Shown in pieces: positions 3,458 through 28,417 of a stretch of 39,925 nt of DNA. This stretch comes from an uncultured Gammaproteobacteria bacterium (lineage in GTDB: Bacteria > Patescibacteriota > Microgenomatia > Levybacterales > GWA1-39-11): NCBI GenBank assembly GCA_964472415.1, contig CAYYLC010000001.1, positions 197,269-237,193 on the forward strand, in the 5' to 3' direction. The notes under the pieces are model-generated. The model searched no databases. It had not been told where the DNA came from and worked only from the letters and a program-made list of their open reading frames with translations. Numbering within the stretch: the stretch's first letter is position 1; each line of letters starts with the position of its first letter. The position numbers were made by a program, and so were the translations under genes.

Positions 3458-4756
3458 ATGGATAAGATTCAAAGCTTGCAATCAAATACAGCGGTTCTTT
3501 TTTTCAAAGTTGTCCGACACGAATTGGTAAGAGGGAGTTTTTGGTTATCGGTTGGAGCAATTGGATCAAGTTTTATTGCTTTTTTAACAAATCTTTTCCT
3601 TGCACGGAACCTATCAATTGCCGAGTATGGAGTATATGCAAGTTTATTGTCATTTTTTACTCTTGCGACAATTCCGGCAAAATCCATAACTACGGTTATC
3701 GTAAGGATTGCAGGTGGATATTTTGCGAAGAAGCAGCAGGTTAAGGCAGCATATCTTTATCGAAAGCTTTTGTTTTCAATTATAATCCTTTCTGTTATTG
3801 TTTTAGCCTTCTTGCTTTTATTTTCTCGCATACTGACAGAATTTCTTCATATTGGTAACCCCCTCTTTGCATCGCTTATCGCAATTGCAGTTACATTTTC
3901 ATACTTGGGTTTAGTAAATCAGTCGTATCTCCTCAGCCAGTTACGATTTTCTTTCATTACTTTTGTTTCCATAGTAAGTTCTTTTGTGAGACTTGTTGTA
4001 GCGATAGCGCTTGTATATGCAGGCTTTAAAATGTTTGGCCCTATTTTTTCTATTGTAACGGCTTCATTCGTTACATTTATACTTAAAGCCTTTCCTTTAG
4101 CGGGATTATTGAGGAGTAAATCAGAGAAACCGATTGAAATCCCGAGAGGAGAAATACTTAAATACGCTTTTCCTTCTGCGATAGCTATCCTTTCTCTTTC
4201 GTCATTCATATCTGTAGACATTATTTTAGCAAGACATTTTTTACCATCTCATGAGGCAGGATTGTATGGCGGAATGTCTCTTATTGGAAAAGTTATTGCA
4301 TACTCGACTACGCCTATTGTTTCTGTTATGTTTCCCATAGTAGTAAAGCGATATGAGGCAAATCAGGAATTTAAAAGAGTGCTATATCTTGCAATTTTTT
4401 TGGTTGCAATGCCAGCATCTATTATTACATTTTTTTATTTTCTTTTCCCAGATTTTACTATTCGTTTATTTCTCAACAATTCTGAATATCTTGATAAGGC
4501 GTCAATTCTTTGGCTATTTGGATTATTTATATTTACTCACATGGTATTAAATGTGTTTGTAAATTTTTTCCTTTCTATAAAAAAAACAAAAGTATTTATA
4601 TTTGTAGCAATCTTTGCTTTACTGCAAATAATGTTCATAAGTATTTTTCATGAAAGTATCTTTCAGATACTCATGATTTCGATTTCTTTAATTTTTATTC
4701 TTCTTTGTTTACTGTTCATATATTTTCTTCTTAGAATTAAGAGGATTGGGGGATGA
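3458..4756 (+). CDS. wzx: Wzx-type oligosaccharide flippase (MOP superfamily)
   Basis: About 12 hydrophobic segments, with LARNLSIAEYGVY and EAGLYGG repeats typical of polysaccharide flippases. ATG 3458 lies just after the previous stop. Confidence 0.85.
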   Translation: MDKIQSLQSNTAVLFFKVVRHELVRGSFWLSVGAIGSSFIAFLTNLFLARNLSIAEYGVYASLLSFFTLATIPAKSITTVIVRIAGGYFAKKQQVKAAYLYRKLLFSIIILSVIVLAFLLLFSRILTEFLHIGNPLFASLIAIAVTFSYLGLVNQSYLLSQLRFSFITFVSIVSSFVRLVVAIALVYAGFKMFGPIFSIVTASFVTFILKAFPLAGLLRSKSEKPIEIPRGEILKYAFPSAIAILSLSSFISVDIILARHFLPSHEAGLYGGMSLIGKVIAYSTTPIVSVMFPIVVKRYEANQEFKRVLYLAIFLVAMPASIITFFYFLFPDFTIRLFLNNSEYLDKASILWLFGLFIFTHMVLNVFVNFFLSIKKTKVFIFVAIFALLQIMFISIFHESIFQILMISISLIFILLCLLFIYFLLRIKRIGG

Positions 4757-6419: not shown

Positions 6420-6422
6420 TTG

Positions 6423-8549
6423 ATGAAAGTTGTAAATTTTTTTAAGAAAAACTATTTTGTAATTCTGCTTATTTGTGTGGCGGTAGTATCCCATCAGGAA
6501 TGGTTCAATTTAAATTCTATCCTTACTTCTGGAGATTGGAGATTTTGGCCAACTGAGACGATGAAGGAGTATATTAGCTCATATGGGACATGGATAGGAG
6601 ATAGGAATATCGGCAAGGCGAACATTCAGATATATTTCAATATTTTCCATTCAATTTGGTCTGTATTTACGAATTGGGGCTTTACAACAGAGCAGATCTC
6701 TAAGCTAACAGTGTTTATTCCGGTAGCGATTCTTGGATTTATTTCACCTTATTTTTTAATGAAGAAATTTACGAGTGATAAATTGATCTCTTTCATCTCT
6801 GCTCTTTTTTACGGTTCAACTACATACTTTCTTATTCTTCAAAGTAGTCATTTAACCATCGCATTTGTTTATAGTTTGACACCATTTATTTTCTTAGCAT
6901 TTATACAAGCCCTGGAGAAGAATAGGCTATTGAACTGGATATTTTTCTCCATAATTTATTCTATTGGAATTGGGTATGAGCTTCGGATAATGTATATTGT
7001 TACTTTTGTATTATTCTCTTACTTTTTATTTTTTCACAGCTCTGAGCTAAGAAAATATTTAAAAAATATTATTGCTACAGGATTTCTTATATTTTTTCTT
7101 AATAGCTATTGGATAGTTGCAACATTGTCTGGAGGAGCATCTGATCGCATTGAGCAGGTTGCGGGGAGAGGATTATTTGGAGATTTTTTAACCGACATTT
7201 TACGGTCATTTACGCTATCTCATTGGTCGTGGACTGGTGCTTATAAAAATAGAGAATTCGAGCCTCAATCGATATTATTATATTTCTGGATACTTCCTAT
7301 TTTTGTTTTTTCACTCTTCCTTATAAAGAAAAATAAATATTTAAAACAAATGGTCTTCTATTTAATGATTCTTCTTGTAGGGATTTTTCTTGTTAAGCAA
7401 TCCGCGCCTCCGTTTCAGTCATCTTACCAGATTCTCTATGATTATTTTCCTGGATTCAAATTGTTCAGAGAATCTTCAAAAATGTATCTTCTTATTGCAC
7501 TTGCCTATACTGTACTTCTTGGATATGGTCTGAGTTTGTTAAAGATTAAAAATTATTTACTTTTTAAAATACTAGCGGGAGTTTTTGTAGTATTGGCTTT
7601 TGTTAATCTAATTCCTCTTATTAATAAAGACTTTCGAACTCTCTTCATAGCACGAGAACGTCCGATTGAATACAGTAATTATGAAAATTATATTTTATTA
7701 GCGGAAGATTCATATAGGACCCTGTGGATCCCGCGCAATTCGCAGTGGTCTTATTATGGTGTTAAGAATCCACGGATGCATATGATTCAGATGAAAGACG
7801 GTGGTTGGAAGGAGCTTTTTAAACAAATTGATACTAGTAGGTCTGAGGGTCAAGAAGTTATGGATTTTTTCAATCAGGATTTTACCCAGAGACTGTTAAG
7901 TATAAGCTCAGTTCGATTTATTGCAATCCCATTAATGGATCATACAGATTTGGAAAATAAATTATTCCTTAATTCCGGAACAGACAGAGAGTTTTATGTT
8001 CAAAGAATAGACAAGATTCCGTATTTGAAAAAGGTAGATATAGGAATTGGAGATATAGATATATATGAGAATCCTGATTATCGACCTCGTGTTTATTATA
8101 CGAGATCTCCAGAGACAATTTATGAGGGTATAGATTATTTTGAGGTGCAGAATATACGATATACTGCCGCAGAAAAAAGCTTTGAAATAAAGAATATTTC
8201 TGGACCAATATACATAAATTATTCTGAAGCATATAGTGATAGTTGGAAATTGAGAGTCGGTCCTAAAGATCTGTTTGCCTCAATTTTTAAATCTGACTAT
8301 TTTCTTCCTGATAAGAACCATATAAAAAATGATGCTGGTTTAAATACATTTTATCTTAATATTGATGAGGTTTGCGATACGTATGAATGTGATAAGAACC
8401 AAGACGGAACTTATAATATAAAAGCTACGGTATATTTTAAATCGCAATCGTTTTTCTATGTGGGTGTAGGAATTACTGTAGTAACTATTGCAGTATTATC
8501 ATTTACTATAATTTATGTATTGCTTAAAAATAAATATGGAAAAGAATAG
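6423..8549 (+). CDS. Multi-pass membrane protein, probable GT-C glycosyltransferase (YfhO / DUF3367-AftD-like)
   Basis: N-terminal TM followed by a loop with GDW, about 11 TM helices and an FRESSKM motif. A large extracellular C-terminal region containing YSEAYSDSWKL precedes a final TM. The family call is from motif recall only. Confidence 0.6.
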   Translation: MKVVNFFKKNYFVILLICVAVVSHQEWFNLNSILTSGDWRFWPTETMKEYISSYGTWIGDRNIGKANIQIYFNIFHSIWSVFTNWGFTTEQISKLTVFIPVAILGFISPYFLMKKFTSDKLISFISALFYGSTTYFLILQSSHLTIAFVYSLTPFIFLAFIQALEKNRLLNWIFFSIIYSIGIGYELRIMYIVTFVLFSYFLFFHSSELRKYLKNIIATGFLIFFLNSYWIVATLSGGASDRIEQVAGRGLFGDFLTDILRSFTLSHWSWTGAYKNREFEPQSILLYFWILPIFVFSLFLIKKNKYLKQMVFYLMILLVGIFLVKQSAPPFQSSYQILYDYFPGFKLFRESSKMYLLIALAYTVLLGYGLSLLKIKNYLLFKILAGVFVVLAFVNLIPLINKDFRTLFIARERPIEYSNYENYILLAEDSYRTLWIPRNSQWSYYGVKNPRMHMIQMKDGGWKELFKQIDTSRSEGQEVMDFFNQDFTQRLLSISSVRFIAIPLMDHTDLENKLFLNSGTDREFYVQRIDKIPYLKKVDIGIGDIDIYENPDYRPRVYYTRSPETIYEGIDYFEVQNIRYTAAEKSFEIKNISGPIYINYSEAYSDSWKLRVGPKDLFASIFKSDYFLPDKNHIKNDAGLNTFYLNIDEVCDTYECDKNQDGTYNIKATVYFKSQSFFYVGVGITVVTIAVLSFTIIYVLLKNKYGKE

Positions 8550-9597
8550 TTTTAAAAAAATAATCTTTGGAGTACTCCTTTTTTTTGTATGGATTCTCCT
8601 AACTGCTTGGTATGTGGTGATCTATGATCAAAGTTTTTTTATAACTTTTCAAGCTCATCAAGAGGAAAATTTTATAGATTTGAGTCATGACAGGCTCTTA
8701 AAAGGAGAGAAAATCTCCGGAGAATTCAAAGCAGAGAGAGATAATTTGGGAATAGTTTCATTAAGGTTTAAAAAATTTCTTCGCATTCCCTATGATCAAG
8801 AAGATACATTGATTTTTAGAATTAAGGAAAAAGATTCTTCTCAATGGTATTACGAAAATGAGTATAGGAGTGGATTAACATATGACGTTCCTTTTTTACC
8901 TTTTGGTTTTCCGTTAATTCCTGACTCTAAAGGGAAAATATATTATTTTGAACTCGAGTCATTGAGGGGAAATTCCGTAAATGGTGTGGTGTTGAGTGAG
9001 AGGGAGCCAATCTTGGTAACCAAGTATGAAGCAGATAGGGGTTTGGTATTTAGTAATCTTAATGAATTGTTCAATTTTTTGAATGAAAAATTTCTTAGAG
9101 CACTTTTAACAATTGATATTTTTTATTCATCAGTAATTTTTGCATTACCTTTAGTTTTCTATTTTTTACATTTTACCTCATTTGGAAAAAGGGTAATGGA
9201 ATATGTGCCGAAATTTATCATTTCAAGGCTCGAAGCTTTTGGTAAGAAATTGTTTGGTAGAAAATATAAACAAACTATAGTAATTCTGTCATCATTCTTT
9301 TATCACTGGATGTTAATCATTCTAATAGTTTTACTGTTTTTTGATATATTTTTCCTCCAAATATTAAATGATTTGTTGTACATTTTGGTAATATTTTTAT
9401 GGATCATAATATTAAAGATCTATCGGAAGGATAGAGTGCAATCTTTCAGATTGGGAATTGTATTATTGATAATTTCTCCAATGGCTCTTGCATTTAGTAA
9501 TGTTGATGTAGCTGAAAAAGCTGCAGTTTGGGCATTTGCGTTTTTTATTGCAGGCTTAATTCAGGCATTTTTAGAAATAAGAAAGAAGCGGAAATAG
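8536..9597 (+). CDS. Hypothetical membrane protein: extracellular beta-rich domain plus about 5 C-terminal TM helices
   Basis: One N-terminal TM, a ~160-aa soluble domain (FGFPLIPDSKGKIYYFELES), then a hydrophobic C-terminus; overlaps the previous stop. Confidence 0.75.
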   Translation: MEKNSFKKIIFGVLLFFVWILLTAWYVVIYDQSFFITFQAHQEENFIDLSHDRLLKGEKISGEFKAERDNLGIVSLRFKKFLRIPYDQEDTLIFRIKEKDSSQWYYENEYRSGLTYDVPFLPFGFPLIPDSKGKIYYFELESLRGNSVNGVVLSEREPILVTKYEADRGLVFSNLNELFNFLNEKFLRALLTIDIFYSSVIFALPLVFYFLHFTSFGKRVMEYVPKFIISRLEAFGKKLFGRKYKQTIVILSSFFYHWMLIILIVLLFFDIFFLQILNDLLYILVIFLWIIILKIYRKDRVQSFRLGIVLLIISPMALAFSNVDVAEKAAVWAFAFFIAGLIQAFLEIRKKRK

Positions 9598-11835: not shown

Positions 11836-12696
11836 ATGCCAAAAATTTCCCTCATAATTCTTACCTATAATTCATCGCGATATATCTCCGATCTTCTAAC
11901 TGGACTTATGAACAGATTCGATAAAGAACTAGTAAATAAAGCCCTGGAGATTTTAGTTGCGGATAATGCTTCTCAGGATGAGACAGTAAAACTTGCAAAA
12001 AAATTTAAAAAAATTCAGGTAATAGAAAACGGGGGGAATTATGGATTTGCAAAAGGAAATAATTTAGCAGTTAAAAAAGCTACAGGAGAATATTTATTAT
12101 TTATAAATCCAGACGCGAAATTTATCGATGGAGATATTTTTGAGCTTTTGAAATCATTCAAAGATGAAAAAGTGGGGATTGTGGGAGGAGAGATTATGAA
12201 TTGGCAAAAAGAAAAAGAATTATCGTGTGGTAAATTTTATAAATTTTTTAGTACAACATTACTTACGCTTGGATTGGAAGAATTTTTTCGTGTGCGATTT
12301 TCTCCGGAAAAGGAACAGTTTGTAGATTTTGTGAGTGGGGGATTTTTAATGATTCGAAGAGAGGTTTTTGAGAAGCTTAACGGATTTGATGAAAATTATT
12401 TCATGTACATTGAGGATTCAGATCTATGTTTTCGCGCAAAAAAAATAGGATATAAAACAAAATTTTCCCCTAAAGCAACTATTCAGCACATGGGGCAAGG
12501 GAGTTCCAATAGGACATTTGCAATCATAAATATTTATAAAGGATTAGTATATTTTAATAAAAAGCATTCAAATTATTTAGAATACTTGTTTGTGAGATTT
12601 GCCCTAAAAACTAAGGCATTATTGCTTGTAATACTGGGAAAAATAATGAATAATAGATACCTGGTGGATACCTATTCTGTGGCTATGAAATTATGA
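11836..12696 (+). CDS. Glycosyltransferase family 2 (WbbL/rhamnosyltransferase-like)
   Basis: IILTYNS, ADNASQD, NYGFAKGNN, LFINPD and FDENYFMYIEDSDLC. ATG 11836 is preferred. Confidence 0.9.
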   Translation: MPKISLIILTYNSSRYISDLLTGLMNRFDKELVNKALEILVADNASQDETVKLAKKFKKIQVIENGGNYGFAKGNNLAVKKATGEYLLFINPDAKFIDGDIFELLKSFKDEKVGIVGGEIMNWQKEKELSCGKFYKFFSTTLLTLGLEEFFRVRFSPEKEQFVDFVSGGFLMIRREVFEKLNGFDENYFMYIEDSDLCFRAKKIGYKTKFSPKATIQHMGQGSSNRTFAIINIYKGLVYFNKKHSNYLEYLFVRFALKTKALLLVILGKIMNNRYLVDTYSVAMKL

Positions 12697-15600
12697 AAAA
12701 ATATTTTTCTTGGATCTTGGAACATGCCCTCTTTATCGTAACGCTTTTTCTCCTTGCATTTATCCCCTTGTATCCAAAAATCCCATTAGTTGATATTCAG
12801 AATACATGGGTATATATTCGTGCTGAGGATTTTGTTGTTTTTTTAGTTTTGATATTATGGACGATTTATCTTATTCGAAATAAGATAACATTGAGAACTC
12901 CCCTTACTCTTCCGATATTCGGATTCTGGATAGTAGGTGCTGTAGCAACGATTCATGGAATAATACTCCTTTTCCCAAATCTCGCAAATGTATTTCCGAA
13001 CGTTGCATTCCTGAGTTTTCTCAGAAATATTGAGTATATTAGTGTATTTTTTGTGGCATTTTCAGCCATGCGTGATAAAAAATTCCTAAAAATTATTATT
13101 TTTGTTCTTGTGCTAACACTTCTTGCGATTATTTTCTATGGGTTTGGTCAGAGATTTTTAGGTTTTCCCGCCTTTCTTACCATGAATGAGGAGTTTGCTA
13201 AAGGAGTTCCGATCCAGCTCTCAGAGCTTTCTCGTGTCCCCTCAACTTTTGCGGGACATTATGATTTGGCTGCATATCTCGTTTTGATAATTCCCATTGT
13301 AGTGAGTCTTATTTTTGGATTTAAAAATTGGTTTATAAAAATATTTTTAGGTATTACAACCATATTAGGGTTTGTGTTGCTTTTTATGACAGTTTCACGA
13401 GTTTCATTCTTTGTCCTCATTTTGTCACTTCTTATTGTCCTTTTCTTCCAGAAGAGAAAATTAGTTTTGTTTTCTGTGCCAGTTCTCGTAATTTTGGGAT
13501 TTGCATTTCTTATTTTACGACCTACGACACTTCTAGAACGATTTAGCGATACAGTGAATGAGGTAAATGTGCTTGTTAATGCAGAAACTGGACAAGCAAT
13601 AGCACATGTTGAATATGTAAGCCCTGATTATTTTAATGAGAAGATTATCGCACAGCAAGATATTGGTACTACTCAGGAGTTGAGCGATGTTCTAAATGGA
13701 GTATTGCAAGACGATACTGCCGCTACTCCTTCTGCTTTTTTACCTGCGAGACTTTTCCCTCAAAAAATCCCACTTGTTATCGATAGAAATGTTTCGACTG
13801 GGGAGGAGCTTATTCAAGGAACTGGATATATAAATCTTTCACTTTCACCAGTTGATAAAAAACTAGGGAACTTTTTCTATGAAATTACTGATGAGAAAAA
13901 CTCTAACATCTCTGCAGATGTTCTTATACTACATGGAGACTTTTTGGTAAAACGGGCAGCAGCATATGATCTCTCGTTTACGACTAGGTTTCAAGGGGGA
14001 TGGCCGAATGCTTTGGAATCATTTGAGAGAAATGTGTTTTTAGGGAGCGGATATGGAACGGTGACACTGGCTGTGGATAATAATTATCTCAGAATACTGG
14101 GGGAAATCGGCATATTAGGACTTCTGTCCTATGCAGGAATATTTGTAACACTTGGGATTTATATTGTGAGAGTTCTTCCGAAGACCGATTCAAGCCTTCT
14201 TAAAAGCTTCGTGATTGGGTATGCTGCAGGAGTTATAGGGATTGCCTTGAACGCAACACTTATCGATGTATTTGCAGCCTCAAAAGTCGCATTTGTATTG
14301 TGGCTTTTGACTGGAGTAGTGGTTGGGTTACTCTCTTTGTATCAAGTAAGAGAGTTAGATTTTAAAGCAGAGTTGAGAAACTTTACACTATCGCCTGTTG
14401 CGATAATTTTGTATATTTTTATTCTTACATTCGTTATTTATATTCCAATACTTAATAATTATTTTATTGGGGATGATTTTACGTGGTTTCGGTGGGCGGT
14501 AGATTGCACGTATGGAGGACTACAGTCCTGCCCAAATATTTTTGAACGAATAGCAGACTATTTTACATCAGCTAATGGATTTTTCTATAGACCTGGCACA
14601 AAAACATTCTTCCTTGTCGGATATTCAGTGTTTTGGTTAAATCAAGTAGTTTTTCATTTAATATCCATAATGCTCCACGCAATTGTCGTTGCGTTATTTT
14701 TTCTACTTTCTCGGAAAGTTTTGAAGAGTAATTTGCTTGCAGCACTTGGGGGCATTCTTTTTATTGTGATGAGCGGATATGCAGAAGTGGTGTTCTGGAT
14801 ATCCGGAATTGGACACCTTTTTAATGCAGTATTTGTAATGTTTTCGATACTGCTTTTTTCTGCATGGAACAACTCAAGAAAAGTTTATTATCTACTCGGT
14901 AGCATTGTTTCTATATTCTTAGCTACATTTTTCCATGAATTAGGAGTAGTGGCGCCTCTCCTTATTATTATATATTCCTTATTTGTGACAAAGCGATTTA
15001 CTATAAAAAGATTGCATAAGAAAATAGATATATTTGTATTGTTTATTCCTGTCGTGCTGTATCTTTTGATGCGTTATATGGCAAAAAGTCATTGGAGTGG
15101 AGGAGATTATAGCTACGATATTTTGATGCTACCGTTTAATGTAGTGGGAAATATTTTTGGTTATGTGATGATAGTAATTTTAGGGCCCATGTCTTTGTCC
15201 TTCTACCAGGTTATTCGTACCACTCTGAGAGAAAATATTTTTGTTGCAGGAATCTTGGCTGTGATTTTCATAGGTATCTTGTTCATTCTCTACCAGTATT
15301 TGTGGAAGAAGATTAAGCAAGATGATATTAAGATAATCCTTTTTGGAATTGCATTTTTTATTATCTCCCTACTTCCATTTATCGCTTTGGGAAACATAGC
15401 CTCTCGATATAGTTATCTTGCTTCCATTGGAATTGTAATTATTATGGTGTTTATTCTTGGTAAATTATTGAGAATTCTGATGAGGTATGGTGCAGGGATC
15501 GCCTATGGCGGGATGCTTGTTCTGCTTTCTATCTTTACGCTATTTCATATTATCCAGATTCAGCAGCTCCATGGGGATTGGAAAACAGCGGGGGATAAAG

Positions 15601-15935
15601 TTGAGCAATTCCTTATCTCCATGGATTCACTTTATAGAGATTCTTGGGCAAGTGCTGAGACAGAATTGCATTTTGTAAATGTACCGATAAAGCACAATGA
15701 TGCTTGGGTGTTTCCAGTAGGTGTTGAAGATGCGCTATGGCTTACATTCCAGAATGATGATTTGAAAGTGGTGAATCATCAAAGTATTGATGATGCAGTG
15801 GATTTAGTTGGGCTGTTTCCACATAAATCTATTTTAGTTTTTGAAGAAAATGGTCATATAGAAGAGATAAGAGTTTTTAAAAGTATTTATACAGGAGACA
15901 TAGAATACGAGTTTGTAAATACAGAAAGAGAATAG
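12693..15935 (+). CDS. Fusion protein: O-antigen ligase/Wzy-like domain plus TMTC-like GT-C glycosyltransferase domain
   Basis: N-half: RVPSTFAGHYDLAAYL, TVSR and R....W..A...LGSGYG...DNNYLRILGEIG. C-half: FIGDDF, FYRP, FHLISIMLH and EVVFWISG. About 20 or more TM segments in one uninterrupted 1080-aa frame. Confidence 0.75.
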   Translation: MKKYFSWILEHALFIVTLFLLAFIPLYPKIPLVDIQNTWVYIRAEDFVVFLVLILWTIYLIRNKITLRTPLTLPIFGFWIVGAVATIHGIILLFPNLANVFPNVAFLSFLRNIEYISVFFVAFSAMRDKKFLKIIIFVLVLTLLAIIFYGFGQRFLGFPAFLTMNEEFAKGVPIQLSELSRVPSTFAGHYDLAAYLVLIIPIVVSLIFGFKNWFIKIFLGITTILGFVLLFMTVSRVSFFVLILSLLIVLFFQKRKLVLFSVPVLVILGFAFLILRPTTLLERFSDTVNEVNVLVNAETGQAIAHVEYVSPDYFNEKIIAQQDIGTTQELSDVLNGVLQDDTAATPSAFLPARLFPQKIPLVIDRNVSTGEELIQGTGYINLSLSPVDKKLGNFFYEITDEKNSNISADVLILHGDFLVKRAAAYDLSFTTRFQGGWPNALESFERNVFLGSGYGTVTLAVDNNYLRILGEIGILGLLSYAGIFVTLGIYIVRVLPKTDSSLLKSFVIGYAAGVIGIALNATLIDVFAASKVAFVLWLLTGVVVGLLSLYQVRELDFKAELRNFTLSPVAIILYIFILTFVIYIPILNNYFIGDDFTWFRWAVDCTYGGLQSCPNIFERIADYFTSANGFFYRPGTKTFFLVGYSVFWLNQVVFHLISIMLHAIVVALFFLLSRKVLKSNLLAALGGILFIVMSGYAEVVFWISGIGHLFNAVFVMFSILLFSAWNNSRKVYYLLGSIVSIFLATFFHELGVVAPLLIIIYSLFVTKRFTIKRLHKKIDIFVLFIPVVLYLLMRYMAKSHWSGGDYSYDILMLPFNVVGNIFGYVMIVILGPMSLSFYQVIRTTLRENIFVAGILAVIFIGILFILYQYLWKKIKQDDIKIILFGIAFFIISLLPFIALGNIASRYSYLASIGIVIIMVFILGKLLRILMRYGAGIAYGGMLVLLSIFTLFHIIQIQQLHGDWKTAGDKVEQFLISMDSLYRDSWASAETELHFVNVPIKHNDAWVFPVGVEDALWLTFQNDDLKVVNHQSIDDAVDLVGLFPHKSILVFEENGHIEEIRVFKSIYTGDIEYEFVNTERE

Positions 15936-17390: not shown

Positions 17391-18559
17391 TCAAGATTTT
17401 ATTTGTAACATATGATTTTCCGTTTCCGCCAAATTCTGGAGGAAAAAGTAGAGCTTATAATCTCATGAAGTATGCGAAGACGAAAGGTGTACAGATTTAT
17501 CTCTTGTCATTTATGAGAGCTAGTTTTGATAAAAAATGGAAAAGAGAGCTATATGATATCGGAGTTTCAGAAGTAGGGGTTCATAAGAGGAAGAAATTAA
17601 AGTCCATATCTACTATCTCTAAAAATATCCTTTCAAAGGACTCTATTTTTAAAACTCTTTATCATGATGATGGTTTTAAGAAAAAATTATTAAATATGAT
17701 AGAGGTGCATAATATAGACGTTGTCCATTTTGAATCAAGTTATACTGGATATTATCTGAAGTATGTAAAAACGGGAAAAATTAAAACAATTCTTGGAACA
17801 GAAAATATTGAACACCTTTTATATCAGGACTTTCTTAAGACTACAAATTTTATACAAAAATCTATATTGCAATTTCAGATTGATCGATTTAAAAGAGAGG
17901 AGGAATTGATGATGAAGTTGGCAGACCTAAGTCTTGCGGTAACTAAAGATGAGGCGCGATATATAGAGAGAATTTCAGGTAAAAAATGCGAAGTTGTAGA
18001 AAATGGAATTAGCGTAAAAGATTTAAGCTATTCTTTCCAAGAGCGCACTATCGATAATCTCATATTCGTTGGAAATTTTTCATACATGCCAAATCGAGGC
18101 GCGATTCAATATTTTATTCGTGATGTAATGCCGAAATTACCCGAAAATATAACTTTAACGATTATTGGAAAAAACGTTTCAAAGTACGTGGAGCCGAGTG
18201 GGAGAATTAGAGTAAAAGATTTTGTATCGGATTTATCTGTAGAGTATAAGAATTCTGATGCGCTGATTTTCCCCGTTAAAATAGGTGGAGGAACGAATTT
18301 TAAAGTTCTTGAAGCCATGGCTTTGGGGGTGCCGGTTGTAGGATTTGCTGATAAAATAGAAAGCATAGGAGCTCGAAAGAATAAGGAATTTTTTCCTGTA
18401 GAAAATGCCTTGGATTTTGTACGACAGATCGAGACTATTCAGAATAAGAGAGAAATAGTAAAAGAGGTGACGATGAGTGCAAGAAAACTAGTGGAGGAGA
18501 ATTATTCTTGGGAGGAGATTGGGAGAAAGCTCAATACTATTTGGAAAAATTATAAATGA
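17387..18559 (+). CDS. Glycosyltransferase family 4
   Basis: FPPNSGGKSR, FVGNFSYMPN, GGGTNFKVLEAMALGVPVV and YSWE motifs. Confidence 0.92.
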   Translation: MIKILFVTYDFPFPPNSGGKSRAYNLMKYAKTKGVQIYLLSFMRASFDKKWKRELYDIGVSEVGVHKRKKLKSISTISKNILSKDSIFKTLYHDDGFKKKLLNMIEVHNIDVVHFESSYTGYYLKYVKTGKIKTILGTENIEHLLYQDFLKTTNFIQKSILQFQIDRFKREEELMMKLADLSLAVTKDEARYIERISGKKCEVVENGISVKDLSYSFQERTIDNLIFVGNFSYMPNRGAIQYFIRDVMPKLPENITLTIIGKNVSKYVEPSGRIRVKDFVSDLSVEYKNSDALIFPVKIGGGTNFKVLEAMALGVPVVGFADKIESIGARKNKEFFPVENALDFVRQIETIQNKREIVKEVTMSARKLVEENYSWEEIGRKLNTIWKNYK

Positions 18560-27402: not shown

Positions 27403-27879
27403 ATGAAAAATAAAAAGCTTTTTATCATTGGTGGAATGCTCCTCCTTCTCATGTTATTTGTTAGTGGTGTTTTATTATTTTTGAATAATTCTTTTCCTGA
27501 AGAGGATAAAGATAGGAATTCCTTTGACGAGAATCTGATTGAAATGTCTCCAGAGGATGTAGGCCTCACATTGTCTAGTCAGCAGAATAATCAACAGCTC
27601 GTTATAGAAATGACAAATCTTGATGAAATAGAATCGTTTGAGTATGAACTTGAGTATGATGCGATAGAAAATGGAGAAGTAGTTACTCAGGGGACATTTG
27701 GATCTGGCCCGAATCCCGATGAGGAAGGTAAATCTGAGATACGACGGACTATTGATCTCGGAACGTGTTCTGCAGTGTGCCGATATCACGAAGGTGTAGA
27801 AGAGATCCTTTTTACACTTCGAGTCGATTTAAGAAATGGTGAAGCTGGAATTATAGAAACTACTCATACGCTCGAATAA
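27403..27879 (+). CDS. Hypothetical single-pass membrane protein with acidic extracellular beta-domain
   Basis: MKNKK, a 22-aa TM, an acidic linker and a beta-strand pattern; close Cys pair in LGTCSAVCRYHEGV. Confidence 0.8.
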   Translation: MKNKKLFIIGGMLLLLMLFVSGVLLFLNNSFPEEDKDRNSFDENLIEMSPEDVGLTLSSQQNNQQLVIEMTNLDEIESFEYELEYDAIENGEVVTQGTFGSGPNPDEEGKSEIRRTIDLGTCSAVCRYHEGVEEILFTLRVDLRNGEAGIIETTHTLE

Positions 27880-27880
27880 A

Positions 27881-27928
27881 TCCTCATATTTAGTGCTTTA
27901 CTTTAGTTATTTATCCTACATATAGTGG
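27881..27928. promoter_or_regulatory. Tandem NrdR-box-like operators (TCCTCATATTTAGTGC at 27881-27896; ATCCTACATATAGTGG at 27913-27928)
   Basis: The second site matches the core C-w-A-y-A-T-A-T-w-G-t-g of the NrdR consensus. The first matches its right half. The offset is 32 bp, and the second site abuts the -35. Confidence 0.45.
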
Positions 27929-27929
27929 G

Positions 27930-27958
27930 TTGACTTTTCACGGAAACTGATTCAAAAT
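27930..27958 (+). promoter_or_regulatory. Candidate dcw (mraZ) promoter TTGACT-17 bp-CAAAAT
   Basis: 5/6 -35 and 4/6 -10 with 17-bp spacing, immediately upstream of the MraZ-box repeats. Confidence 0.55.
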
Positions 27959-27983
27959 GGTGAAAGGTGGTGAAAATTGGTGA
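27958..27983 (+). repeat. Three TGGTGA direct repeats at 10-bp period: MraZ autoregulatory boxes
   Basis: TGGTGA at 27958, 27968 and 27978. MraZ is known to bind 10-bp-periodic TGGGN/GTGG repeats in front of its own gene. Confidence 0.72.
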
Positions 27984-28417
27984 ATTTGCTTGGTCAATAT
28001 GAAGTATCAGTAGGCGAAAAGGGGAGAGTTGCGCTTCCTAAAAAAGTTCGCGAAGCGCTTGGAGAATCGGTAATTGTGACATACGGATTTGAGAAATCAC
28101 TTATTGTAGTATCTGAGGCGAATTGGGCAAAGCTGATATCTGAGTTGAAGAACTCATCGCTCTTTTTAACAAATGCTCGAGACACGAAACGTTTTCTATT
28201 TGGAGGGGCAACGTCTGTATCAGTTGATAAGCAAGGGAGATTTATTTTGCCTGACTATCTGATACGGTATGCAGAAATCTCTGAAGACGTTGTTTTTTTG
28301 GGATTATCATCATATGCAGAGATTTGGGATAAAAAACGTTGGGAGAAGCACACAAAAGAATTAAGTCAGGAAATAGAGACGGTAGCAGAATCACTTATTA
28401 AAAAAATTGAAGAATAG
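27977..28417 (+). CDS. mraZ: Transcriptional regulator MraZ
   Basis: LGQYEVSVGEKGRVALP and VDKQGRFILP (duplicated AbrB-like motifs), AEIWD; first gene of the dcw cluster. The start is uncertain (TTG 27977, GTG 27980 or TTG 27986). Confidence 0.95.
   Translation: MVNLLGQYEVSVGEKGRVALPKKVREALGESVIVTYGFEKSLIVVSEANWAKLISELKNSSLFLTNARDTKRFLFGGATSVSVDKQGRFILPDYLIRYAEISEDVVFLGLSSYAEIWDKKRWEKHTKELSQEIETVAESLIKKIEE

Follow-up and report, generated by a model that had tools for sequence, protein, structure and literature searches.

The operators of NrdR comprise a pair of partially palindromic 16-bp boxes, both of which are needed, a single box being left unbound, and the NrdR proteins of E. coli, S. 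coelicolor, Listeria and Streptococcus bind consensus box pairs of this form (PMC13584703, PMC12051234, PMC9110341). The two boxes are separated by a linker of 15-16 bp, although 14-17 or 24-27 bp are tolerated and the linker sequence is irrelevant; within each box the conserved positions are C4, A6, A8, T9, T11 and G13, positions 3, 5, 7, 10 and 14 are unimportant and at least 63% of the bases between C4 and G13 are A or T (PMC13584703, PMC12051234, PMC9110341). The present analysis concerns two boxes of this kind located in front of mraZ, the first gene of a division and cell wall (dcw) cluster, in a stretch of 39,925 nt (35% G+C) from contig CAYYLC010000001.1, hereafter referred to as the window, to the full length of which all scans and expected counts per window refer. 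The boxes constitute a second operator, real and deeply conserved, at the dcw promoter in bacteria of the Microgenomates type within the candidate phyla radiation (CPR), and an operator of this type at mraZ is previously undescribed. NrdR is the best-supported candidate for the protein that binds it, a reading that is considered moderately probable.

Structural and biochemical studies provide the terms in which such a site can be judged. One zinc-ribbon pair occupies each box, with a kink of about 90 degrees, the C4 and G13 positions called critical are contacted by the NrdR residues D15 and R17, and the tetramer binds DNA only with dATP plus ATP (PMC13584703, PMC12051234, PMC9110341). C4 and G13 lie 8 bp apart; only one of the two boxes may carry a distance of 9 bp, and a distance of 7 bp is not tolerated, while affinity drops only about 2-fold when the C of one box is moved from position 4 to position 3 (PMC13584703). 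The NrdR proteins of E. coli and S. coelicolor each bind to the promoter boxes of the other species (PMC13584703), and in view of such binding across phyla any NrdR present in the organism should recognise the mraZ sites.

A metabolite sensor at the mraZ promoter has its nearest precedent in PdhR of E. coli, which has an upstream site at this promoter and for which a link between metabolism and division was proposed (PMC3265435). Both PdhR and the regulator proposed here would be metabolite-sensing repressors acting upstream of mraZ; PdhR, however, is a GntR-family pyruvate sensor that reports carbon flux and not the status of the deoxynucleoside triphosphates (dNTPs), and it binds weakly to an unrelated site. 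As for NrdR outside the RNR genes, Rodionov and Gelfand are said to have predicted in 2005 NrdR boxes before a few replication-related genes in some taxa, mraZ and the dcw cluster reportedly not being among these candidates. In the large published surveys of NrdR boxes, only the regions in front of RNR operons were searched (PMC13584703, PMC12051234, PMC9110341) and a conserved non-RNR target would therefore have been missed. In agreement with the initial annotation of this DNA, which did not regard mraZ as a described target of NrdR, no paper in the literature searched was found to link NrdR with mraZ regulation or with the Patescibacteria.

The proximal box, box 2 (ATCCTACATATAGTGG, 27913-27928), carries all six NrdR key positions (C4=27916, A6=27918, A8=27920, T9=27921, T11=27923 and G13=27925) and is separated by a single base (27929) from the predicted -35 hexamer TTGACT of the mraZ promoter (27930-27935, plus strand). 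The distal box, box 1 (TCCTCATATTTAGTGC, 27881-27896), starts 32 bp upstream of it across a 16-bp linker (27897-27912), and has A6, A8, T9, T11 and G13, with T at position 4 and C at position 3, giving a C-G distance of 9 bp against the 8 bp of box 2; its minus strand reads GCACTAAATATGAGGA, a 'CACTA' half-box. In both boxes seven of the eight bases (88%) between the C4 and G13 positions are A or T. The coordinates, sequences and 32-bp offset given for the boxes in the initial annotation proved exact, and the imperfect palindromic core of box 2 (CTACATATAG, 27916-27925), the ATCCT...TAGTG pattern shared by the two boxes and their place at a cell-division promoter were likewise confirmed, the downstream gene matching the MraZ family (Pfam PF02381, E = 1.1e-30). 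The same annotation described box 1 as a weaker copy, but it is better read as a box with the critical C at position 3. Judged by its sequence, the window site taken alone falls within the range experimentally tolerated by NrdR.

The locus shares with the operators of E. coli nrdAB, nrdHIEF and nrdDG and of S. coelicolor nrdAB and nrdRJ the two 16-bp boxes, the unconserved linker of 15-16 bp, the key positions but for C4 of box 1, and the AT-rich centre. Box 2 differs from box 1 of S. coelicolor nrdRJ (TCCCCACATCTAGTGG) at only 4 of 16 positions (1, 2, 5 and 10), none of which is a key position.

The extent to which this likeness exceeds chance in AT-rich DNA depends on the measure used. Against the 16-mer consensus of the initial annotation the boxes show 4 and 6 mismatches, and matches with 3 mismatches are found elsewhere in the window (2 against 0.58 expected by chance), so that by this consensus the boxes are not above chance. 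Nor are they by the six key positions alone, since the window holds 12 boxes with all six positions against 13.9 expected and 3 loose pairs against 0.59 expected. A matrix was built from ten boxes with measured binding from E. coli and S. coelicolor (PMC13584703, Table 1). It gave box 2 a score of 15.8 bits, within the range of the validated boxes (10.1-16.8 bits), and made it the best 16-mer of the whole window, the runners-up (10.3, 10.0 and 9.6 bits) all being located in coding sequence; box 1 scored 5.4 bits. The exact score distribution predicts 0.024 matches of at least 15.8 bits per window; when a partner scoring at least 5.4 bits is also required at 30-33 bp, the expectation falls to 4e-4. 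Box 2 thus exceeds chance by the validated-box matrix. Other pairs in the window (at 17924 and 4346) and a pair at a related locus (L042, 604-650) were treated as chance occurrences, because they lie inside coding sequence and are unconserved. A further 16-mer, ATTCAAAATGGTGAAA (27950-27965), which overlies the -10 hexamer and the first MraZ box, has five of the six NrdR key positions, also in most relatives; it was taken as a coincidence, being out of phase at 37 bp from box 2.

Conservation of the boxes was examined in a clade of 12 aligned promoters, comprising the window and 11 relatives with MraZ proteins 69-78% identical to that of the window and the shared gene order recO, glyS, hypothetical gene, mraZ. 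Both boxes are present in all 12 promoters, with an offset of 31 bp in seven sequences and 32 bp in five and hence a linker of 15 or 16 bp throughout. The columns A8, T9, T11, A12, G13 and G15 are invariant in box 1, with A6 in 75% of the sequences and C4 in 50%, and A6, A8, T9, T11, A12 and G13 are invariant in box 2. Positions 5, 7 and 10 of the boxes vary, as does the linker, the mean pairwise identity of which is 0.43 as compared with 0.71-0.73 for the boxes. The variable box positions are non-critical in vitro, and the constraint thus falls on the positions relevant to NrdR, with the exception of C4.

A scan of metagenomes with an MraZ alignment yielded 80 further loci (48-78% identity), and 42 unique Microgenomates-type mraZ promoters with one and the same plan, referred to here as the main group, were recognised. 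In these a full box starts 53-56 bp, mostly 54-56 bp, upstream of the -35 hexamer TTGACA, examples being TCACTACATCTAGTGT (16.3 bits), TCACTAGATCTAGTGA, CTCCTATATATTGTGT and TCACTATAGGTAGCGT, and its profile over the 42 promoters is C4 76%, T5 66%, A6 80%, A8 80%, T9 80%, T11 95%, G13 100% and G15 95%. The full box is followed by a linker of unconserved sequence, 15 bp long in 20 promoters, 16 bp in 20 and 14 bp in 2, and then by a half-box, ACACTA with a T-rich tail, which starts 23-24 bp before the -35 hexamer; the boxes end 7-8 bp upstream of it. Scores of at least 10 bits within a 5-nt positional window were obtained in 22 of 77 promoters, the background being 8e-5 per position. Over 822,602 strand positions (approximately 410 kb of related DNA), the combination of a box scoring 8 bits or more and CACTA at +31 or +32 is confined to mraZ promoters, so that the association with mraZ is exclusive in this lineage. 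About one-third of the fetched promoters, which belong to other lineages including Uhrbacteria (L002), are without such boxes. Conservation upstream of orthologous mraZ genes is therefore strong, in the 12 clade sequences and in a related form in the 42 further promoters, and it decisively excludes chance.

In the main group, the proximal half-box has as its right half a T-tract (ACACTATTTTGG, for example L078 1325-1372 and L042 1349-1395) situated at about -44 to -59 from the predicted start, where an UP element would act, and such a role may be the reason that this half departs from the NrdR consensus. Certain metagenome-assembled genomes titled 'uncultured Gammaproteobacteria bacterium' (L001, L003 and L004) have mraZ loci that are Microgenomates-type or Uhrbacteria-like, and these titles look wrong; L001 and L004 carry the boxes.

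The site in the window and those in the main group are related by inversion. Read on the minus strand, the window site presents a full box, CCACTATATGTAGGAT, 16 bp and then GCACTAAATATGAGGA, which is the plan of the main group, but with its orientation relative to the promoter inverted and its position 8-9 bp nearer to the -35 hexamer. Correspondingly, the half of the weaker box that is conserved differs: in the main group it is ACACTA, on the left, and in the clade of the window TAGYTG, on the right. This flip between the clades is explained by a symmetric dimer on a palindromic box, and a protein binding direct repeats is disfavoured because of it.

Genuine nrdR promoters were available for comparison. 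An IMG/VR contig filed as viral (L103, 3300021600_000632, 38% G+C) encodes an nrdR-nrdD-nrdG operon by Pfam, and the same matrix recovers, as a positive control, two boxes, TTACCACATATGGTGG and GCACAAGATATGGTAT (3844-3892; 12.6 and 12.8 bits), 33 bp apart with a 17-bp linker and approximately 125-160 bp upstream of nrdR. The NrdR encoded here keeps D15 and R17, and the closest named protein that an exhaustive search returned for it is annotated 'NrdR [Parcubacteria group bacterium]', so that the operon is ascribed to an unclassified, CPR-like bacterium and an NrdR with ordinary box specificity exists in such organisms. A 1187-aa protein encoded upstream in the same contig could not be assigned a function. 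Two Bathyarchaeial nrdR-nrdD promoters, also on contigs filed as viral (L105, IMG/VR 3300044798_000623, about 3885-3935; L106, IMG/VR 3300044580_000369, 3932-3979), are built from a full box, then 16 bp of linker, then an ACACTA half-box. Genuine NrdR targets can therefore have the three-anchor arrangement. The plan of these promoters equals that of the Microgenomates mraZ promoters and of the window site read on the minus strand, although they are archaeal and stand in front of nrdR and a class III reductase, which are canonical targets, unlike mraZ.

Several observations weigh against NrdR as the binder and account for the reserve with which it is proposed here. Most promoters keep only three of the four G/C anchors. 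In the clade, C4 of box 2, although called critical in both boxes, is found in the window alone and is missing in all 11 relatives (G in 75% of the sequences), so that the box 2 of the window is the only canonical one among the clade members. The second box of the main group keeps just C4 and A6 and usually lacks G13. The loss of anchors matters experimentally, as the G44C substitution in box 2 of E. coli nrdEF abolished NrdR binding and the inversion of a single G:C pair in each box carried a cost of about 60-fold (PMC13584703, PMC12051234, PMC9110341). Several relatives of the window also fail the C4-G13 distance rule, for example in box 2 of L007 (G4) and of L016 (C5), whereas the window keeps to it. 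Most clade boxes score 4-9 bits, under the validated boxes; in half of the clade sequences one box reaches 8 bits or more (8.0-15.8), and the others peak at 5.3-7.5 bits. Not one of 81 unique mraZ promoters matches the published pair pattern (C.[AT].[AT][AT].[AT].G twice, with a gap of 20-23 nt), the window failing it through T4 of box 1. The target and the location are likewise unusual: known NrdR operators stand at RNR or nrdR genes and their boxes usually overlap the RNA polymerase site or the start, whereas the present boxes belong to mraZ and the dcw cluster and lie upstream of or abut the -35 hexamer. It is also not obviously adaptive for division genes to be repressed when dATP is available.

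The gene for NrdR itself was not encountered. The DNA of this genome that could be accessed amounts to approximately 51 kb (the window and 11.5 kb of extensions), and no nrdR was found in the window by Pfam scans of essentially all long open reading frames (ORFs), nor in the 10 kb to its right or the 1.5 kb to its left, and the nrdR signature is absent from six-frame translations of the window and of 100 related mraZ loci (L001-L100). The lack of nrdR in about 51 kb says little for a genome of roughly 1 Mb. In wider searches a consensus NrdR query returned Clostridia only, and the exhaustive search with the NrdR of L103 found the one named neighbour from the Parcubacteria group and nothing tied to the mraZ-bearing genomes. 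A divergent NrdR from a 'viral' contig turned out to be Bathyarchaeial, and no Microgenomates mraZ was found on the viral contigs.

The view of the initial annotation that these are NrdR boxes is partly supported. The pattern of conserved positions, apart from C4 in the relatives, and the 15-16 bp linker (all 12 clade promoters and 40 of the 42 more distant ones, the other two having 14 bp) agree with NrdR operators as defined in PMC13584703 and PMC12051234; the pair pattern and the location do not.

The main rival explanation, considered unlikely, is that a different, lineage-specific factor binds as a dimer of dimers to AT-rich partial palindromes with one G/C anchor each, its likeness to NrdR being convergent. 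Such a factor would suit the many lineages that constrain just one G/C anchor per box, including the G or A found at position 4 of box 2 in the relatives of the window and the missing G13 of box 2 in the main group, and it would accord with the failure of every promoter to pass the pair pattern, with the absence of nrdR from the accessible DNA and with a target and position atypical for NrdR. Against such a factor, the conserved positions coincide one for one with A6, A8, T9, T11 and G13 of NrdR boxes, and often C4, the linkers of 14-16 bp stay inside the NrdR-tolerated range, the E. coli/Streptomyces matrix gives 12-16 bits at a fixed position in many promoters and a genuine archaeal nrdR-nrdD promoter has the same plan of full box and half-box. 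Moreover, to our knowledge no other factor with this box and spacing is known.

It is far less probable that the sequences serve no dedicated regulator and reflect promoter architecture instead, that is, UP-element-like contacts of the RNA polymerase alpha subunit, DNA curvature or a second promoter, TTTACT-18-TATAGT (27897-27926). The region of about -40 to -90 is where UP elements act, the T-tract in the right half of the proximal box of the main group would suit one, and TTTACT-18-TATAGT comes up in a promoter scan, matching at 9 of 12 positions. An element made of A/T tracts would not, however, be expected to conserve G13, G15 and C4 while the adjacent A/T positions vary, and the strict spacing of 31-32 bp between two palindromic units is foreign to UP elements. 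The second promoter was rejected, because in relatives its would-be -10 hexamer is TCTAGT or TGTAGT, with the essential A2 lost, and its would-be -35 hexamer lies inside the unconserved linker.

Least probable of all is a chance likeness in AT-rich DNA or a hairpin, CCTAC-ATATA-GTGGG, that terminates the upstream 158-aa gene. In the window, six-position matches and loose pairs are about as frequent as chance would have it, and a terminator scan picks out 27915-27929, behind which a T-rich stretch follows. Nevertheless, chance is ruled out by the conservation over dozens of divergent promoters, and the intrinsic terminator was rejected on account of its 5-bp stem with a G-U pair, its unconserved left arm and an RNA fold of 27870-27945 that is no better than shuffles (z = +0.64).

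No match to a known RNA family was found in Rfam. A DnaA box (TTTATCCTACA, 27910-27920) was rejected, because an insertion is needed to form it and it is not conserved. Inspection for CIRCE, SOS and CtsR sites gave no match.

MraZ autoregulates dcw promoters through three or four GTG(G/T) boxes placed 6 nt apart, and the promoter studied here carries an operator of this type that is separate from the upstream boxes. Three GTGA boxes (27958-27985, plus strand; at 27960, 27970 and 27980) are separated by 6 nt and lie inside TGGTGAA repeats, giving a 10-bp period over 27960-27983; the third coincides with the start codon (GTG) of mraZ. No variation is seen among relatives in the three TGGTGAA repeats; two linker bases between repeats 2 and 3 are variable. 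The fourth base of the window boxes is A and not the usual G or T. These boxes overlap the ribosome-binding site AGGTGG (27965-27970) as well as the start codon, and the 5' leader would therefore be just about 15 nt. The MraZ operator is made of direct repeats downstream of the -10 hexamer, from which the NrdR-like boxes differ in sequence, repeat type and position; that the upstream boxes are extra MraZ sites was rejected, because core and period differ.

The promoter between the two operators was predicted by scan as TTGACT-17-CAAAAT, with the 17-bp spacer at 27936-27952 and the -10 hexamer at 27953-27958 on the plus strand. The TTGAC of the -35 hexamer is invariant in the clade alignment, and TTGAC(A/T) is found in nearly all related promoters; the -10 hexamer shows no variation in the clade at C, A3, A4 and T and has A as its second base in at least 90% of the sequences, and CAAAAT or TAAAAT recurs across the related promoters. 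As placed from these hexamers, the transcription start would lie near 27965.

By analogy with the solved NrdR-DNA complexes, an NrdR tetramer loaded with dATP plus ATP would set one zinc-ribbon pair on each 16-bp box, the two boxes being spaced by three helical turns, so that they share one face of the DNA, and each being kinked at its AT-rich centre. Box 2 would span roughly -52 to -37 from the predicted start and abuts the -35 hexamer, where the bent complex would hinder sigma region 4 and the alpha C-terminal domains and so lower dcw transcription. With ATP only, NrdR would form oligomers that do not bind DNA and the promoter would be left to MraZ autoregulation at the three GTGA boxes. The direction of control is ambiguous, since NrdR binds with dATP and plain repression would cut the expression of division genes when dNTPs are plentiful. 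Lying at about -45 to -91 in the main group and immediately next to the -35 hexamer in the clade of the window, the boxes would suit an activator as well, and division may possibly be gated by the deoxynucleotide pool through activation or licensing and not through repression.

The operator lies in an intergenic region of 97 bp between the gene for a 158-aa membrane-anchored hypothetical protein (27403-27879), which is directly upstream, and the mraZ coding sequence (27980-28417, plus strand; 145 aa, GTG start at 27980). Upstream on the plus strand the window carries a long glycosyltransferase/teichoic-acid-like cluster, recO and a glycyl-tRNA synthetase gene ahead of the 158-aa gene, and mraZ heads a cluster of rsmH, an ftsL-like gene, a penicillin-binding protein gene, mur ligases, a murA-like gene, mraY and ftsW. 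The rightward extension of the contig (10 kb) continues with murG, ftsA, ftsZ, bipA, ileS and rodA, and the leftward extension reaches the contig end after 1.5 kb. MraZ relatives at about 50% identity are labelled by NCBI as Levybacteria/Levyibacteriota or 'Patescibacteria group', which marks the organism as a Microgenomates-type member of the CPR, and the top match in an assembled-genome contig collection has 49% identity.

In the glycosyltransferase/teichoic-acid-like cluster three long ORFs, at 12693-15935 (1080 aa), 6420-8549 (709 aa) and 8515-9597 (360 aa), have no Pfam match. All Pfam-matching ORFs of the window are on the plus strand, which has 21% G and 14% C. One-directional replication skew has been reported for some Microgenomates (PMC7143001), and the strong strand asymmetry of the window is reminiscent of it.

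NrdR has been described as an RNR-specific repressor, from which a conserved target in the dcw cluster would depart. The wider proposal, namely that NrdR was recruited across a whole class of the CPR (Microgenomates/Microgenomatia-type) to the division and wall operon through a three-anchor upstream operator, so that division is gated by the deoxynucleotide pool, is regarded as evenly poised on the present comparisons. As E. coli and S. coelicolor NrdR accept each other's boxes, the prediction can be tested simply. The sites also bear on the rule for a functional NrdR site, which may prove to be that three G/C anchors are enough and that the weaker box can do without one half or the other. The dNTP checkpoint on division genes suggested by the initial annotation would, if true, couple cell division directly to dNTP supply at the level of transcription, in organisms with minimal genomes, few regulators and scavenged nucleotides, the cell-cycle control of which is almost unstudied.

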